Positions 7,354 to 20,581 of a stretch of DNA of 64,000 bases are shown piece after piece (position 1 is the first letter of the stretch; each line of letters opens with the position of its first letter). The stretch is taken from positions 32,001 to 96,000 of the IMG/VR virus record IMGVR_UViG_3300023179_000027; one strand, written 5' to 3'. The notes below the pieces were generated by a model. It ran no database searches. It was not told the DNA's origin and was given only the letters and a program-made list of their open reading frames with translations. The translations under genes and the position numbers were made by a program. Source of the stretch: a virus (lineage: Duplodnaviria; Caudoviricetes).

Positions 7354-7428
7354 TGGAGGTTCGCCAAGTGGTAAGGCCCCGGATTTTGATTCCGGTATGC
7401 ATAGGTTCGAATCCTATACCTCCTGCCA
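7354..7428 (+). tRNA. tRNA-Gln(TTG)
   Basis: Cloverleaf; CCGGA-TT-TTG-AT-TCCGG; TTCGAAT; encoded CCA. Confidence 0.95.
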
Positions 7429-13494: not shown

Positions 13495-14055
13495 ATGTCA
13501 GTACTAGCCCTTGACGTTACAGGAATTCCAAGACAGTGGATCAGCTATGATAATGCTATAACATATCATGCTAAAAAAGCAGTTTCTTGGACAATGGGTG
13601 ACATTGTGGCTAGATACCGCGGTGGTCATCAGAAAACTGGTGAACTTAGTTACATTGAAACTACTAGCATTATAGCTATAAAAGGCCATGGATTCGATCC
13701 ATATAAACATGGTAGAGTATCATTAAGCAATCGTACCTTGTTTGGACGAGATCGAAACACTTGTGCTTATTGTGGAAAGCATTTCGCTAATCATAATCAA
13801 TTAAGCCGTGATCACATTGTCCCAAAAAGTAAAGGTGGCAAAAACGAATGGATGAATGTAGTTACTGCATGTAAAAAATGTAATAGCGAAAAAGGTAATC
13901 ATACTTTGAAAGAAGCTAGAATGGAAATATTGTATGTGCCATATGTTCCAAATCATTTTGAAAACATGATATTGCAAAATCGCAATATCCTAACAGACCA
14001 AATGAATTATTTATTAGCTGGAATACCTAAACATAGTAGGTTAATTTTGTCTTAA
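13495..14055 (+). CDS. HNH endonuclease
   Basis: RDRNTCAYCG...DHIVPKSKGG...NVVTACKKCNSEKG. Confidence 0.9.
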   Translation: MSVLALDVTGIPRQWISYDNAITYHAKKAVSWTMGDIVARYRGGHQKTGELSYIETTSIIAIKGHGFDPYKHGRVSLSNRTLFGRDRNTCAYCGKHFANHNQLSRDHIVPKSKGGKNEWMNVVTACKKCNSEKGNHTLKEARMEILYVPYVPNHFENMILQNRNILTDQMNYLLAGIPKHSRLILS

Positions 14056-14297: not shown

Positions 14298-14374
14298 CTG
14301 ACCGTAGCTCAGTAGGATAGAGCAATGGATTTCTAATCCATTGGTCGGGGGTTCGAATCCCTCCGGTCAGGCCA
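14298..14374 (+). tRNA. tRNA-Arg(TCT)
   Basis: ATGGA-TT-TCT-AA-TCCAT; CCA. Confidence 0.95.
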
Positions 14375-14388
14375 TTATTATATACTAT

Positions 14389-15036
14389 ATGTTTACAATT
14401 TACAATTTATTTTATACCCCAGTCATAAAAGTTAAAGTTAATCCAACTTCTTTTGATAAAAAGACTATTCTTAATACAGTAATTAAAAATTACAGGAAAC
14501 AACCATTTCGTAATAAGCATGATACTCAAAGTAAATTACACCATTATTATAATGATTGGGATAATGAAAAATTTGATAAGGTAGATTTAAGTAGTTTGGT
14601 TAATGTTTATGATGAGATTTTTAAAAATTTAGTTTCAAACATTCCTAACAAAGCACCTATCTCTTATCAATTTGAAATTGAAAACATTACAGTTATGAAG
14701 AATAAGAGCAATGATTTTAAAAAACATAATCATTTAAATGGAAATATATATTTTGCTTGTGTACACTATATTAGTGTTGGAAAAAATAGTGCGCCATTAA
14801 GACTCCATAATCCTTTACCTTTATATGATTATCTTCCTAAGGAGTTAAATACATTAAGGGATAGCAAATTCGATATTAAAAACCCATTTCATAGCTTAGT
14901 TTGTAGTCATTATGATATAATTGTAGAAGAAGATGATATGATAATTATACCTAGTTTTCTTTTACATAGTGTTTCACAAGAAGAAAACGATACCAAACAT
15001 AGAGTTGCTATTGCTACAAATTTAAGTTTAATGTAA
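14389..15036 (+). CDS. Putative 2OG-Fe(II) oxygenase
   Basis: HNH...VHY...IIPSFLLHSV...RVAIATN; start moved downstream of the tRNA. Confidence 0.7.
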   Translation: MFTIYNLFYTPVIKVKVNPTSFDKKTILNTVIKNYRKQPFRNKHDTQSKLHHYYNDWDNEKFDKVDLSSLVNVYDEIFKNLVSNIPNKAPISYQFEIENITVMKNKSNDFKKHNHLNGNIYFACVHYISVGKNSAPLRLHNPLPLYDYLPKELNTLRDSKFDIKNPFHSLVCSHYDIIVEEDDMIIIPSFLLHSVSQEENDTKHRVAIATNLSLM

Positions 15037-15211: not shown

Positions 15212-15784
15212 ATGCAGAAAATATCAGACCTTATAACAGTTGTTGACAATTTTGTAGACAAGAGTTTTTGTAAAAAAACCTACAATTTTTTATTAGGTAA
15301 GACAAATTGTCCTTATTATAATGATAACAATATGCCATGGTTCATTGGAAACAATGTTTTTTATTATAATATTGATAACAAAGCTCTTAATAAAAAAGTA
15401 ATTGAAATAAACTACAGTGTAGCAGAGTTGTTAACAACTATCCACAAGGTACAAGTTTATCCACATTTTTGTGATTTAGTACTATGGCGTGAAGGGCAAA
15501 GCATGGAGAGACATGTAGATGATGGCTCCAACTCTAATAATAGAGAAGATTTAAATATGCGTAAATATTCTGCAATTTTATATCTTAATGATGATTATAT
15601 TGGGGGTAAAACTTTTATCAAAGTTACAAATGAAACTGATTACTTTTCTGTTCCAAAGACAGGAACATTGGTTATGTTTACAGGAGACTCTAGGTCTGCT
15701 CATGGAGTAACTAAAATAGAAAAGGGTAACAGGGGAACTATTGCAATGTGGTTTTGCACTGATAAGCAGTTTTGCCAAATGTAG
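15212..15784 (+). CDS. 2OG-Fe(II) oxygenase, prolyl-4-hydroxylase-like
   Basis: HVD, YLNDDYIGG, HGV, R..IAMWF. Confidence 0.85.
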   Translation: MQKISDLITVVDNFVDKSFCKKTYNFLLGKTNCPYYNDNNMPWFIGNNVFYYNIDNKALNKKVIEINYSVAELLTTIHKVQVYPHFCDLVLWREGQSMERHVDDGSNSNNREDLNMRKYSAILYLNDDYIGGKTFIKVTNETDYFSVPKTGTLVMFTGDSRSAHGVTKIEKGNRGTIAMWFCTDKQFCQM

Positions 15785-15958: not shown

Positions 15959-15967
15959 TTTTTGAAG

Positions 15968-16231
15968 TATCCCCGGCCCTACGCCGGTCAGTAAGTAGGC
16001 GGTTGGACTTACGTTAGTAGTCTAGGTTAGCTCAACGACCTCCCTTCGGGCCTTTCATCCGGTGTGGTAAATGTTGAGATGTGATTGGCCTTCAGACGAA
16101 CAGGCACGGACAGGGTAACAACTCAAGTTGGGGCTTGTGGGAACAAGTAGCCGACACTATATTCAAGCACATTAAGCAGATGTAAGTCGTCCGTTTAGGC
16201 GCAGTTGTAAGTCTTAGTGTGTTTCAATATG
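15968..16231 (+). ncRNA. Candidate multi-helix structured ncRNA followed by a long stem
   Basis: GC-rich, ORF-free; pseudoknot CCTAC/GTAGG, cUUCGg and GGGA tetraloops, 18/19-bp stem 16158-16231. Confidence 0.55.
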
Positions 16232-16253: not shown

Positions 16254-16715
16254 ATGAAAAAATTGAATATTCCTGTAACAATGTTAGGTCCTGCGAGGCA
16301 GTGTGGTACTTGTACTGCATGTTGTGAAGGTTGGTTAGAAGGTGAAGCATACGGGTATAACTTTTTTTCAGGAAAAATGTGTCACTATAAAGGCGAAAAC
16401 AATTGTACTATTTATAAAAATCGCCCTGAAGAACCTTGTAAAACTTATAAGTGCGAATGGTTAGTAAACCATAGTATACCAGAATGGATGAAGCCTAGCT
16501 TATCAAAGGTTATCATAACTAAACGTCTAAAAAAAGGTATAACTTATCTTGAAGTTATAGAAGCAGGGCAAAAAATAGATAGCACTGTATTAAATTGGCT
16601 TTTCGTAGAGCATTTAAAGGGTACTATTCCTAATCTTGCATACAAAGTAAACAATGGTCAAAATTATTTAGGAAGTCAAGATTTCATAGAGATGGTACAG
16701 CAGGTTGACAATTAA
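16254..16715 (+). CDS. CxxCxxCC (YkgJ-like) Zn/Fe-S binding protein
   Basis: CGTCTACC...C..Y..RP..PC..Y.C; paralog of 19557-20027. Confidence 0.7.
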   Translation: MKKLNIPVTMLGPARQCGTCTACCEGWLEGEAYGYNFFSGKMCHYKGENNCTIYKNRPEEPCKTYKCEWLVNHSIPEWMKPSLSKVIITKRLKKGITYLEVIEAGQKIDSTVLNWLFVEHLKGTIPNLAYKVNNGQNYLGSQDFIEMVQQVDN

Positions 16716-16933: not shown

Positions 16934-17008
16934 GCGGGTATAGCTCAGAGGAAGAGCAAATGGCTTTTAACCATTAGGTCGTAGGTTCGATCCCTGCTAC
17001 CCGTACCA
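16934..17008 (+). tRNA. tRNA-Lys(TTT)
   Basis: AATGG-CT-TTT-AA-CCATT; CCA. Confidence 0.95.
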
Positions 17009-17014
17009 AACAAA

Positions 17015-17102
17015 GGGTGTTGCCCCCGTCGGCGGACTGTAAATCCGTTACTCTAAGAGATGGGAAGTTGAGTTCGTGGAGCGTTACCATCAACACCCAC
17101 CA
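17015..17102 (+). tRNA. Non-canonical tRNA-Tyr(GTA)-like gene lacking a normal D-arm
   Basis: GGGTGTT/AACACCC-A-CCA acceptor; GCGGA-CT-GTA-AA-TCCGT; only ~9 nt in place of the D-arm. Confidence 0.75.
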
Positions 17103-17108
17103 AACAAT

Positions 17109-17182
17109 CGCGGGTTGTAGAAATGGCATCTAACCAGTCTCATAAGCTGGAGTTGGGGGTTCGACTCCCTCACCCGCAACCA
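17109..17182 (+). tRNA. tRNA-Met(CAT), initiator-like
   Basis: C1xA72 mismatch, A11-U24; CCAGT-CT-CAT-AA-GCTGG; CCA. Confidence 0.85.
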
Positions 17183-17272
17183 AGATGCACAGTCTCGCTT
17201 TACGCTGTGGCAGGATGGCCTCTCAGACTGCGACTAGAGTCCTACTTGCAAGGTTGGACATAGCACAAATTT

Positions 17273-17347: not shown

Positions 17348-17439
17348 AACACAGTCGCCAGGATAGGGCGACAACATAGGGAGGGCAGCGGAGTACGCTA
17401 GGCTCTTAAACGACAGCAACTATGCGTCCCGTAGCATTT

Positions 17440-17628: not shown

Positions 17629-17719
17629 GGAAGCGCAAACCGACTGGCGACGGTACCTGTCTTGAAAACAGTTGAGCGTTAATAACGCCTTGGGGGTTCA
17701 ACTCCGCCCGCTTCCGCCA
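17629..17719 (+). tRNA. tRNA-Ser(TGA)
   Basis: CTGT-CT-TGA-AA-ACAG; long variable arm; G73; CCA. Confidence 0.9.
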
Positions 17720-18006: not shown

Positions 18007-18332
18007 ATGCAGGATATATATCAGTATATTAAACTTCCTAAAGATGTTCGCACTGTACACTTAAACCTAGACACAGCCTGTATAGAAAGAGGTGGAGGAA
18101 GTACTTATTGTAAAGGTCTACTAGCCCATTTACTAGAGACAACAATACCTAAAGGACATATCATACATGTCTGTCATGCATGTAATAATAGCAAATGTAG
18201 TAACCCTGAGCATTTGTATTGGGGTACTGCAAGCGAAAACAGGCGTGATAGAGTAAAATATGAAAATCGTTGTTTAATAGAAATATATGCAGATGACTTT
18301 AGAAAAAAGTTAACAGAACGTAGTAAAAAATT

Positions 18333-18342
<10 letters not shown>
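18007..18342 (+). CDS. His-Me finger (HNH / His-Cys box-like) endonuclease
   Basis: HVCHACNNSKCSNPEHLYWGTASEN; stop codon lies inside the next tRNA. Confidence 0.7.
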
Positions 18343-18411
<69 letters not shown>

Positions 18412-18417
18412 AAATAT

Positions 18418-18512
18418 GGTAGATAGCACTGGTGTGCGGCGGAGATTTATAAACTCTGGAGACTGGTCAGATGGGCTGGAACGGTAGGGTTCGAATCCCT
18501 AGTCTACTACCA
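18418..18512 (+). tRNA. Atypical tRNA, anticodon TAT, 4-nt D-loop, very long variable region
   Basis: GGTAGAT/GTCTACT-A-CCA; GCAC-TGGT-GTGC; GGAG(A)-TT-TAT-AA-(A)CTCT; TAGGG-TTCGAAT-CCCTA. Confidence 0.8.
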
Positions 18513-19556: not shown

Positions 19557-20027
19557 ATGGCATCAATCGTTCCAATTAAAATAGAGCGTTCATGTAATGG
19601 GTGCACTAAATGTTGTGATGGTTGGTTAACAGGTACCGCACATGGACATGACTTTTATCCTGGAAAAAAGTGTTATTGGTCAGGAAAAAATGGGTGTAAC
19701 ATTTATGAGTTTAGACCACATGATCCATGTGTTACGTTTAAGTGTTTTTGGAAAACTAGTCGGCTTGTTCCAAATCATTTTAAACCAAGTACGATTGGTG
19801 TTATCTTTGTTGAAAGATATTTAGATACTTATGCTTTTTTAGATGTTAATTATGGTGGTGCAGTTTTATCTAATGAAGTTATTGATTGGTTGTACAAGGT
19901 TTTTAATGAAAACAAAATACCTCATATTAGATATAGAAAAGACGGAAAATATCGTATATTAAGTAATGATATTGAGTTTGTTAAGCTTATGGAAAATAAA
20001 TTAGGAAAAGAAAATTTAGATAGATGA
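19557..20027 (+). CDS. CxxCxxCC (YkgJ-like) protein
   Basis: CNGCTKCCDGWL; paralog of 16254-16715. Confidence 0.7.
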   Translation: MASIVPIKIERSCNGCTKCCDGWLTGTAHGHDFYPGKKCYWSGKNGCNIYEFRPHDPCVTFKCFWKTSRLVPNHFKPSTIGVIFVERYLDTYAFLDVNYGGAVLSNEVIDWLYKVFNENKIPHIRYRKDGKYRILSNDIEFVKLMENKLGKENLDR

Positions 20028-20581
20028 AAAAATTTTTATTTGAAACATTTTATATTATTGATTCTTTACCAAATCATACGGCTATAAAGCCATTATTATT
20101 AAATGAAATTTCTAAAATTAGCACAAACAATAGCCTTGTAGATGATAATAATTTTATTAGTAAATTAGATTGGCAAAGTAGCGACACTAATCAAAAATGG
20201 AAAGATATATTTTTGCCATATTTAAATTCTAAATTATTAGAAATTGCAAATGATAATGGATATAAAAATATACGTATAGATGAGTTGTGGTTTCAGCAAT
20301 ATAAAAAGAATGGTAGACATGGTTGGCACACGCATGGATCCAACTTTACAGGTATATATTATTTAGAATTGCCAAAATACGCTCCTAAAACTGAACTTAT
20401 TCTACCTTGTTTATGTAAACCATTTACGCCTGATATTGCTGAAGGAGATATATTAATATTTCCAAGTTATGTAGTACATAGAGCACCCATTATAACTAGG
20501 AAATTAAGAAAAACTATTATATCATTTAATTTCACTATGATGATGTTAACAGATATTTTCTTACAAAGTATAGGCGAATAA
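20024..20581 (+). CDS. Putative 2OG-Fe(II) oxygenase
   Basis: WFQQY, HGWHTH, EGDILIFPS..VH, KTIISFN. Confidence 0.75.
   Translation: MKKFLFETFYIIDSLPNHTAIKPLLLNEISKISTNNSLVDDNNFISKLDWQSSDTNQKWKDIFLPYLNSKLLEIANDNGYKNIRIDELWFQQYKKNGRHGWHTHGSNFTGIYYLELPKYAPKTELILPCLCKPFTPDIAEGDILIFPSYVVHRAPIITRKLRKTIISFNFTMMMLTDIFLQSIGE

Follow-up and report, generated by a model that had tools for sequence, protein, structure and literature searches.

A tRNA-Tyr-like unit with a pseudoknotted core, supported by covariation, in phage and bacterial tRNA arrays

The DNA analyzed here is a stretch of 64,000 nucleotides (nt), hereafter called the window, which corresponds to bases 32001-96000 of an IMG/VR virus record (IMGVR_UViG_3300023179_000027; Duplodnaviria, Caudoviricetes) of 130,630 bases with a CheckV completeness of 37%. 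The GC content of the window is ~30% and rises up to 43% across a cluster of tRNA genes. ARAGORN reports 23 tRNA genes in the window, all of them on the + strand between positions 7354 and 21495, and none at 17015-17102 (+), which is the location of an 88-nt unit resembling tRNA-Tyr, the subject of this work. This Tyr-like unit lies within a jumbo-phage tRNA array, between tRNA-Lys (16934-17008) and tRNA-Met (17109-17182), with a spacer of 6 nt on either side, and both its spacing and its orientation match those of its tRNA neighbours.

An original prediction, made from the sequence of the window without any database search, had described at this place an intact acceptor stem with A73 and CCA, an anticodon arm with the tyrosine anticodon GTA, a short region where the D arm should be, and a T loop, and all of these elements are found where it located them. 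The suggestion that standard tRNA finders may miss the fold also proved right. ARAGORN was run on 97 array sequences (96 viral loci retrieved as described below, and the window), and none of its 1459 calls overlaps the unit. An Rfam search at E ≤ 10 gives neither RF00005 nor any other match on the unit of the window, the four adjacent tRNAs being recognized with 52-70 bits; for the viral tRNA-like family RF00233, the sole match (15.2 bits) is on the adjacent tRNA-Met. Moreover, no other Tyr anticodon arm occurs in a tRNA-like context anywhere in the record of 130,630 bases; the original prediction had described it as the sole Tyr anticodon of the tRNA set. The set around it had been called near-complete, but Ala and Phe are also absent from this 37%-complete record. 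In an annotated phage collection, blastn of the unit gives no match and megablast of 2.5 kb returns only a tRNA-Met; hence, no named phage in that collection carries the unit.

The elements of the unit, with the evidence on which each assignment is based, are the following:

17015-17022 (+), 5' strand of the acceptor stem, GGGTGTT followed by G8; pairs with 17091-17098
17023-17024 (+), connector of two nucleotides, CC, at cloverleaf positions 8-9; base counts in 100 units
17025-17030 (+), 5' strand of helix P, CCCGTC, at the place of the D arm and directly continuous with the anticodon stem; covariation
17031 (+), G at the '26' position, facing T17049 at the '44' position; base counts in 100 units
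17032-17048 (+), anticodon arm with stem GCGGA/TCCGT, loop CTGTAAA at 17037-17043 and anticodon GTA at 17039-17041; covariation
17050-17053 (+), 5' strand of helix Q, ACTC, the stem of the variable arm; pairs with 17070-17073
17054-17058 (+), loop segment L2, TAAGA, A-rich, which joins Q to P; length and composition counts
17059-17064 (+), 3' strand of helix P, GATGGG, inside the variable-arm loop, with one G·T pair to CCCGTC; covariation
17065-17069 (+), loop segment L3, AAGTT, with an invariant AAG at 17065-17067, the proposed stand-in for the D loop
17070-17073 (+), 3' strand of helix Q, GAGT; covariation
17076-17090 (+), T arm with a stem of 4 base pairs (bp), GTGG/CCAT, and loop AGCGTTA at 17080-17086; covariation
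17091-17102 (+), C65 and the 3' strand of the acceptor stem (CAACACCC; AACACCC at 17092-17098), A73 at 17099 and CCA at 17100-17102; base counts

The interval between the acceptor stem and the anticodon stem consists of GCCCCCGTC only, that is, 9 nt (17022-17030). When the 88 nt are folded as a single sequence, the z value is -1.86 and the minimum free energy (MFE) structure differs from the one listed above, pairing a strand of the anticodon stem with the region before the T loop. With a z value of this size and a different MFE structure, the single sequence settles nothing, and the 6-bp helix between CCCGTC and GATGGG could be due to chance. The MFE fold was rejected, its inner helices being only 48-73% paired on the alignment of homologues.

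Relatives of the unit were retrieved by pattern scans. The first one, on viral contigs, required only the motifs of the anticodon loop and the T arm and returned at least 119 stretches; among the matches listed, 97 sequences (96 loci and the window) have a closing acceptor stem and 23 are chance matches, and these 97 correspond to 53 distinct sequences. The second scan, also on viral contigs, used the 5' half only and gave a complete listing of 80 loci, of which 72 have the same T arm, 7 have a variant (UGCGUUA in two, UGCAAUU in three, and a compensated change of the stem in two) and 1 is cut by the end of the contig. The third used the 3' part only, leaving the anticodon arm free, and found 95 loci. 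The fourth applied the pattern of the first to one genome per prokaryotic species, with at least 120 matches; of the 119 that were parsed, 41 close an acceptor stem, and with L209 discounted as a chance match the family has at least 40 members in genomes. The pooled set contains at least 100 distinct units in 151 occurrences, 60 units being viral only, 39 genomic only, and 1 present in both.

Comparison of these relatives bears directly on helix P. Seven loci from an exact 23-base scan of viral sequences show few differences, including two compensatory changes in P (T-A to C-G and C-G to T-A). In a structure-blind MAFFT alignment of the 53 distinct homologues, P shows 99.7% pairing, 5 of its 6 pairs having changed in a compensatory manner. 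Also, the whole structure is paired in 97.7% of the cells of this alignment, compared with 78% in shuffles, none of the 500 shuffles being as high, and sliding the partner columns by 1-3 positions reduces the pairing to 33-56%. As a control for circularity, all 100 distinct units were aligned to a covariance model that contained Q and lacked P. In this case, P is 98.0% paired, again with compensatory changes at 5 of the 6 pairs; for example, one position is occupied by CG in 33 units, GC in 30, AU in 16, UA in 16, GU in 4 and UG in 1. In the covariance-model alignment of the 100 units, the whole structure is 96.7% paired. A MAFFT alignment of all 100 units was set aside, as the 3' strand of P was shifted by one column in many rows, and covariance-model alignments were used instead.

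The second helix of the core, Q, has a stem of 3-4 bp and is 86.7% paired in the 100 units, with compensatory changes at 4 of 4 pairs and variants as different as ACCT/AGGT, GGCA/TGCC, GTCC/GGAC, CCT/AGG and GTCG/CGAC. The support for Q consists of pair counts in fixed columns; in a longest-helix permutation, cross-paired sequences likewise form helices of 3-5 bp.

This comparative sequence evidence is decisive, and the CCCGTC/GATGGG helix is real. The proposal of a 6-bp helix that encloses the anticodon arm and replaces the D arm is thus corroborated by covariation in ~100 distinct relatives: the homologue search and covariation check that had been suggested for it gives 98.0-99.7% pairing with 5 of 6 pairs compensatory. 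Relatives with a normal D arm, which would have pointed to a recent deletion, did not appear in the family, its 100 distinct members being without a D hairpin. The linker of ~10 nt that had been placed between this helix and the T arm is found there, but it is not a plain linker, because its GAGT pairs with ACTC just past the anticodon stem. Since the strands succeed one another in the order P5'-Q5'-P3'-Q3', with the 3' strand of P located within the loop of Q, the core is a pseudoknot.

Outside the pseudoknot, the acceptor helix is 98-99% paired and shows compensatory changes at 6-7 of its 8 pairs in the alignments of 53 and 100 sequences. Its eighth pair (G17022/C17091) is G-C in 95 of the 100 distinct units, U-A in 4 and unpaired in 1. 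For the T stem, 98.5% pairing is observed in the 100 units, with 3 of 4 pairs compensatory, and for the anticodon stem 98%, with all 5 pairs compensatory. The acceptor/T branch therefore comprises 8 bp plus 4 bp (12 bp in total) with support from covariation, the base 5' of the T stem and C65 being unpaired in the inspected units, rare cases excepted. This refines the original prediction, whose intact acceptor stem and T loop AGCGTTA both stand, to an acceptor stem of 8 bp and a T stem of 4 bp. The first pair, G1-C72, is present in 96 of the 100 units, and the 3' end has C, C and A in 96, 98 and 95 units, respectively. The connector is more variable, its first base being C in 57, A in 29, U in 13 and G in 1, and its second C in 62 and U in 38; the segment L2 ranges from 3 to 10 nt, with A at 386 of its 657 bases. 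Finally, positions 26 and 44 are occupied by G/U in 71 units, A/C in 18 and other combinations in 11. As the exchange of G·U for A·C is isosteric, this is the pattern expected of a wobble pair through which P can stack on the anticodon stem.

All members of the family were found with patterns that fix some sequence, and for this reason conservation was counted only where another scan had left the part in question free, which is the case of the anticodon loop in the third scan, the T loop in the second, and the AAG in the first, second and fourth. Invariant in 100 of the 100 distinct units are the anticodon loop CUGUAAA, A73, G55, C56, and an AAG that leaves the far end of P. In particular, the loop CTGTAAA is found in 96 of 96 units (the loci of the third scan and the window) even if it was unspecified there, and the variants of the T loop all keep G55 and C56, with positions 54/58 being A/U, U/A or U/U.

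The AAG of the unit is located where a D loop would leave the equivalent of the D stem. In the cloverleaf tRNAs of these arrays (Ile, Glu, Gln, Phe, Gly) that have one of the rare T loops AGCGUUA or AGCAUUA, the D loops are devoid of GG and carry AAGU or UAGU (for example, L012:1733-1806, L023:7383-7457 and L121:8270-8426); in those with T loops of the form AUCGUUA, GG is retained in the D loop. This suggests, from the sequences, an alternative elbow module between the D loop and the T loop, shared with the Tyr-like unit. By analogy with these cloverleafs, the AAG of the unit would dock on G55-C56 of the T loop.

The place of the unit among the tRNA genes of phages is also informative. Across the 97 array sequences, each of the other 19 amino acids is represented in 44-73 loci, and a cloverleaf tRNA-Tyr is called in just two (L038 and L090). 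One array (L013) has 29 tRNAs covering 19 amino acids, plus the Tyr-like unit. Among five unit-carrying phage records of 99-100% completeness, none has a Tyr gene with a canonical T loop; as a control, the same pattern found a gene in 5 of 5 bacterial genomes. A covariance model run on 965 kb of tRNA-rich loci retrieves 76 units with 83.8-104.5 bits, and its next match has only 29.9 bits, which argues that the fold is absent with other anticodons in those loci. Indeed, no fold of this kind with an anticodon other than Tyr was found in the 965 kb or in the anticodon-free scan. Judged from this gene content, the unit fills the tyrosine slot of phage tRNA arrays, with a distribution complementary to that of cloverleaf tRNA-Tyr. 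As for the enzymes, the TyrRS/TrpRS family PF00579 has no match in the record of the unit or in five complete unit-carrying phages, so charging would fall to the enzyme of the host, and RtcB (PF01139) has no match in the record or in the four complete phages tested.

The genomic members, at least 40, come mostly from metagenome-assembled genomes (MAGs) labelled Verrucomicrobia. Of 40 such members, 39 share a locus of ≤8 kb with other tRNA genes, up to 20, and Ala-[unit]-Asp-Pro-Arg-Asn is a recurring order in these bacterial arrays. A complete bacterial chromosome (G001) has two copies of the unit. In this case, a gene for the RNA ligase RtcB (L275:16131-17654, - strand, E 1e-96) is found inside the unit-carrying array, on the same strand, and the 40 kb around one of the copies contain ordinary chromosomal flanking genes, with no phage hallmark seen. 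In a sample of the same phylum, 0 of 150 other genomes matched, with just 29 candidates scored per genome; given such shallow scoring, the unit would be sporadic in the phylum, its absence not being shown.

Also, other forms of tRNA-Tyr are observed. One of them is a 7/5 cloverleaf tRNA-Tyr with the D loop UAAAGAU and the T loop AGCGUUA, present in MAGs labelled Chthoniobacterales, in Chthoniobacter flavus and in some viral contigs (L167:1753-1841, L186, L036 viral, L130 and L179). Another, L090:8112-8195, combines an 8/4 branch with a D hairpin of very small size. As a conjecture, the 7/5 form and the form with the small D hairpin may be steps toward the pseudoknotted one.

These observations suggest that the unit encodes a tRNA-Tyr (GUA) of the elongator type whose core has been rewired into a pseudoknot, and which would be working and charged by the host; to this reading we give a probability of about 0.68. 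If so, the array transcript would include the RNA, whose ends would be matured by RNase P and 3' nucleases. Helix P, which runs directly into the anticodon stem via the G·U (or A·C) pair, would take over the place and the stacking of a D stem, and an L-shaped fold would be achieved in which the AAG acts as the G18/G19 of a D loop on A54 G55 C56 G57 U58 of the T loop. The identity set of TyrRS is composed of A73, G1-C72, G34-U35 and a long variable arm, and it is through these features that the host TyrRS would charge the RNA. Then, EF-Tu would carry the charged RNA and UAY codons would be decoded. More speculatively, with its variable loop buried in a helix and no D hairpin, the RNA could survive host nucleases aimed at tRNA-Tyr, and the decoding of tyrosine would thereby continue during infection or stress. 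In favour of this idea are the cleavage of E. coli tRNA-Tyr in its variable loop by Retron-Eco7 (PMC12673091) and the presence of RtcB in one of the unit-carrying bacterial arrays. A wider proposal, which we regard as tentative and rather doubtful, is that the unit represents an elongator tRNA competent in translation but without a cloverleaf, the first natural case in the bacterial world, and that it has spread in phage and bacterial arrays because its core escapes nucleases that hit the D or variable region while TyrRS, EF-Tu and the ribosome accept it.

Several points weigh against the assignment as a working tRNA-Tyr. The T loop is devoid of U54/U55 and the D loop is gone, and EF-Tu, the ribosome, RNase P and the modification enzymes may handle such an RNA poorly. 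The charging and decoding of the unit are predicted functions, and the escape from tRNA-Tyr nucleases as a defence rationale is speculative, being drawn by analogy alone. With respect to the fold, the nested part of the supported structure has -25.4 kcal/mol versus -30.2 for the MFE structure, the pseudoknot not being scorable by the program, and part of the conservation arises by construction because the retrieval patterns fix sequence, although every part so fixed was unspecified in one or more of the other scans. In two metatranscriptome runs, the contigs leave the unit without cover, one run covering only neighbouring tRNA-like stretches (90-99% identity) and the other nothing, so that expression is neither shown nor excluded. 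Finally, an ordinary-looking tRNA-Tyr is present elsewhere in 5 of the 5 carrier genomes tested. Since the ordinary tRNA-Tyr is also kept, the unit would be dispensable for basic decoding in cells, where, to judge from these genomes, it is an accessory, array-borne tRNA-Tyr and not the housekeeping copy.

The normal tRNA-Tyr of these five bacterial carriers, as well as the non-canonical core and the T loop without the usual U54-U55, would also fit a decoy or sponge, that is, a mimic of tRNA-Tyr that binds a tRNA-Tyr-directed defence nuclease or another binding protein and protects the host tRNA-Tyr, and that is not translated with. In line with this, tRNA arrays are discussed as anti-defence elements (PMC12803027), and the toxicity of PtuA-PtuB is neutralised by over-expressed tRNA-Tyr (PMC12673091), as far as the accessible text of both sources goes. 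However, several features of the unit would be superfluous in a decoy: the 12-bp branch, the A73 present in every unit, the CCA encoded in the gene, and the precise anticodon loop of 7 nt, with U33 and A37-A38. Moreover, the arrays supply the other 19 amino acids as ordinary tRNAs and offer a cloverleaf tRNA-Tyr in 2 of 97 sequences and in 0 of 5 complete genomes; a phage with nothing but a decoy could not decode tyrosine if defence depleted the host tRNA-Tyr. We therefore consider a decoy unlikely, albeit with an appreciable chance of being right: the evidence leans to a functional tRNA, and the sequence does not settle the choice.

Considerably less probable is a tRNA-shaped RNA with some other role, such as a processing signal of the array transcript, a regulatory RNA or protein ligand, or a primer. 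The polycistronic setting of the array and the adjacent, unexplained structured spacers would be compatible with such a role, and some tRNAs of the Anabaena array are not detected as tRNAs either (PMC8421152, in the part available). Nonetheless, an anticodon arm would be of no use to a processing signal, and yet the loop with the Tyr anticodon never varies; moreover, the fold is found with no other anticodon, and the unit alternates with cloverleaf tRNA-Tyr across arrays. The silence of the tRNA finders and the low single-sequence z could also be read as signs of a decayed tRNA-Tyr pseudogene, with a recent deletion of the D arm, or of an assembly artefact, but both can be regarded as excluded. 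Every helix is kept by compensatory changes in 100 distinct homologues, and family members occur both in AT-rich phages and in GC-rich bacterial arrays. As for the assembly, contigs from two separate metagenome studies show 0 differences over the unit, which disposes of the assembly error that the original prediction had considered; also, at least five freshwater and marine studies contribute runs that contain the stretch or most of it.

Other unusual RNAs and genes are present in the same array. A conserved non-coding element at 15962-16175 (+), of ~190-215 nt, lies between tRNA-Leu(taa) and an open reading frame (ORF) at 16254-16715. Its homologues have 78% (L080) and 70% (L063) identity over ~215 nt, further ones being present in L094, L052 and others, and they often lie near the pseudoknotted Tyr unit, no more than a few hundred nt away. 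RNAalifold on five sequences gives 44 pairs, 10 of them compensatory, and there is no Rfam match at E ≤ 0.1; on this modelled fold, the element is a structured RNA of unknown kind. The ORF next to it encodes a Cys-rich protein of 153 amino acids with no Pfam match and relatives in 7 viral contigs. Two GC-rich spacers of ~90 nt between tRNA genes, at 17183-17272 and 17348-17439 (+), have no tRNA call and no Rfam match, with one homologue each in a related array (L117 and L062, respectively), and they may be further unrecognised RNAs.

Among the tRNA-like genes, the one at 18417-18511 (+), of 95 nt, with the anticodon UAU and a long variable arm, is missed by ARAGORN in the window; its homologues in L012 and L014, with 84-86% identity, are called tRNA-Ile(tat), as are similar long genes in L009. 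It has a weak match to the Rfam tRNA-Sec model (25.5 bits) and is similar to the allo-tRNA(UAU) group described by Mukai et al. 2017 (PMC5389517), a group of uncertain amino-acid identity. The tRNA-Ser(tga) at 17629-17719 (+) has 46.3 bits on the Rfam tRNA-Sec model (cut-off 47) and is probably of the 8/4 type, which has been reported for tRNA-Ser in phage clusters. HNH endonuclease, 2OG-Fe(II) oxygenase, methyltransferase and sugar-modification genes are interspersed among the tRNA genes; two HNH homing-endonuclease and three 2OG-Fe(II) oxygenase genes are located at 13495-14055, 18007-18342, 14341-15036, 15212-15784 and 20024-20581.

If the pseudoknotted RNA works in translation, the cloverleaf rule for bacterial tRNAs would be broken. 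This would mean that a strand from elsewhere in the molecule can substitute for the D arm, and that the substitution is tolerated by TyrRS, EF-Tu, RNase P and the ribosome. Also, the apparent absence of tRNA-Tyr from many large phage tRNA sets is explained by the finders skipping the unit. Moreover, the unit offers a case in which structural escape from immunity directed at tRNAs can be tested, and a natural scaffold for the design of orthogonal tRNAs.

Set against a canonical tRNA, the unit has the acceptor stem, the discriminator and CCA, as well as an anticodon stem of 5 bp whose 7-nt loop has U33 and a purine at 37. It has neither the D hairpin with G18G19 nor the 5-bp T stem with U54-U55-C56, its T loop being A54 G55 C56 G57 U58 U59 A60, and it is not recognized by finders or models. 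According to an abstract of 2024, every known bacterial tRNA is a cloverleaf (PMC11551756, of which only this part was available). A search of the literature did not turn up any tRNA of bacteria or phages in which base pairing to the variable-arm loop takes the place of the D arm, and a term search of the accessible text of a 2020 review on non-canonical tRNAs (PMC7609411) found no mention of such a fold. The unit would thus be a new structural variant of tRNA, with a fold undescribed in the literature searched. In the catalogue of viral structured RNAs by Fremin et al. 2023 (PMC10690425), a candidate RNA named DNAVirus_1423 sometimes overlaps tRNA-Tyr calls of ARAGORN; it may correspond to the family of the unit, in which case priority would lie with that catalogue.

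The closest relatives in structure are the (8/4) tRNAs, the allo-tRNAs and the tRNA-Sec-like forms of Mukai et al. 2017 (PMC5389517), which have in common with the unit the 8+4 branch, a long variable arm, a long helix at the D position (6 bp in the unit) and the occurrence in phage clusters. According to that work, 8/4 tRNAs, which are known from phage clusters, undergo processing and charging and serve the ribosomes of E. coli. However, the (8/4) tRNAs keep a cloverleaf with a D hairpin made of a long stem and a tetraloop, whereas in the unit the second strand of the helix comes from the loop of the variable arm, giving a pseudoknot. In the available text of that paper, the 8/4 form is reported for Ser, His, Cys and Sec, with 'Tyr' appearing only in the reference list. 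With the bacterial class II tRNA-Tyr, the unit shares GUA within CUGUAAA, A73, G1-C72, a long variable arm and a length of ~85-90 nt; it differs from it in having no D hairpin or G18G19, AGCGUUA in place of UUCRANY, an 8/4 instead of a 7/5 branch, and a variable arm with a paired loop.

A functional parallel is given by Retron-Eco7, which cuts the tRNA-Tyr of E. coli in the variable loop, a phage tRNA-Tyr being resistant via its own variable loop (PMC12673091). The tRNA-Tyr of the SP15/T5 type is, like the unit, encoded by phages and has a variable region different from that of the host. However, as described in the accessible part of that study, these tRNAs are cloverleafs with a longer variable loop, and the unit, known from sequence alone, is likened to them by analogy. 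For the bacterial members, the comparison is with L-arrays (PMC8421152 and PMC4758250), since they are likewise found in dense tRNA arrays, one of them with RtcB. A term search of the text at hand from both papers finds no mention of a non-cloverleaf member; according to these sources, 23 of 26 tRNAs of the Anabaena array are charged in vivo.

Finally, two other groups depart from the usual tRNA fold. The mitochondrial tRNAs that lack the D arm, such as tRNA-Ser(AGY) and those of nematodes, have, like the unit, no D hairpin and are functional as tRNAs (PMC7609411, from the part available). Nonetheless, they are shortened forms with a flexible connector and adapted factors, whereas the unit has 88 nt and its arm is replaced by a covarying 6-bp helix and a pseudoknot. 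In the tRNA-like structures of the tymovirus type, the pseudoknot belongs to the acceptor arm, at the 3' end of a viral RNA genome; in the unit, the acceptor is ordinary and the pseudoknot is located in the core.

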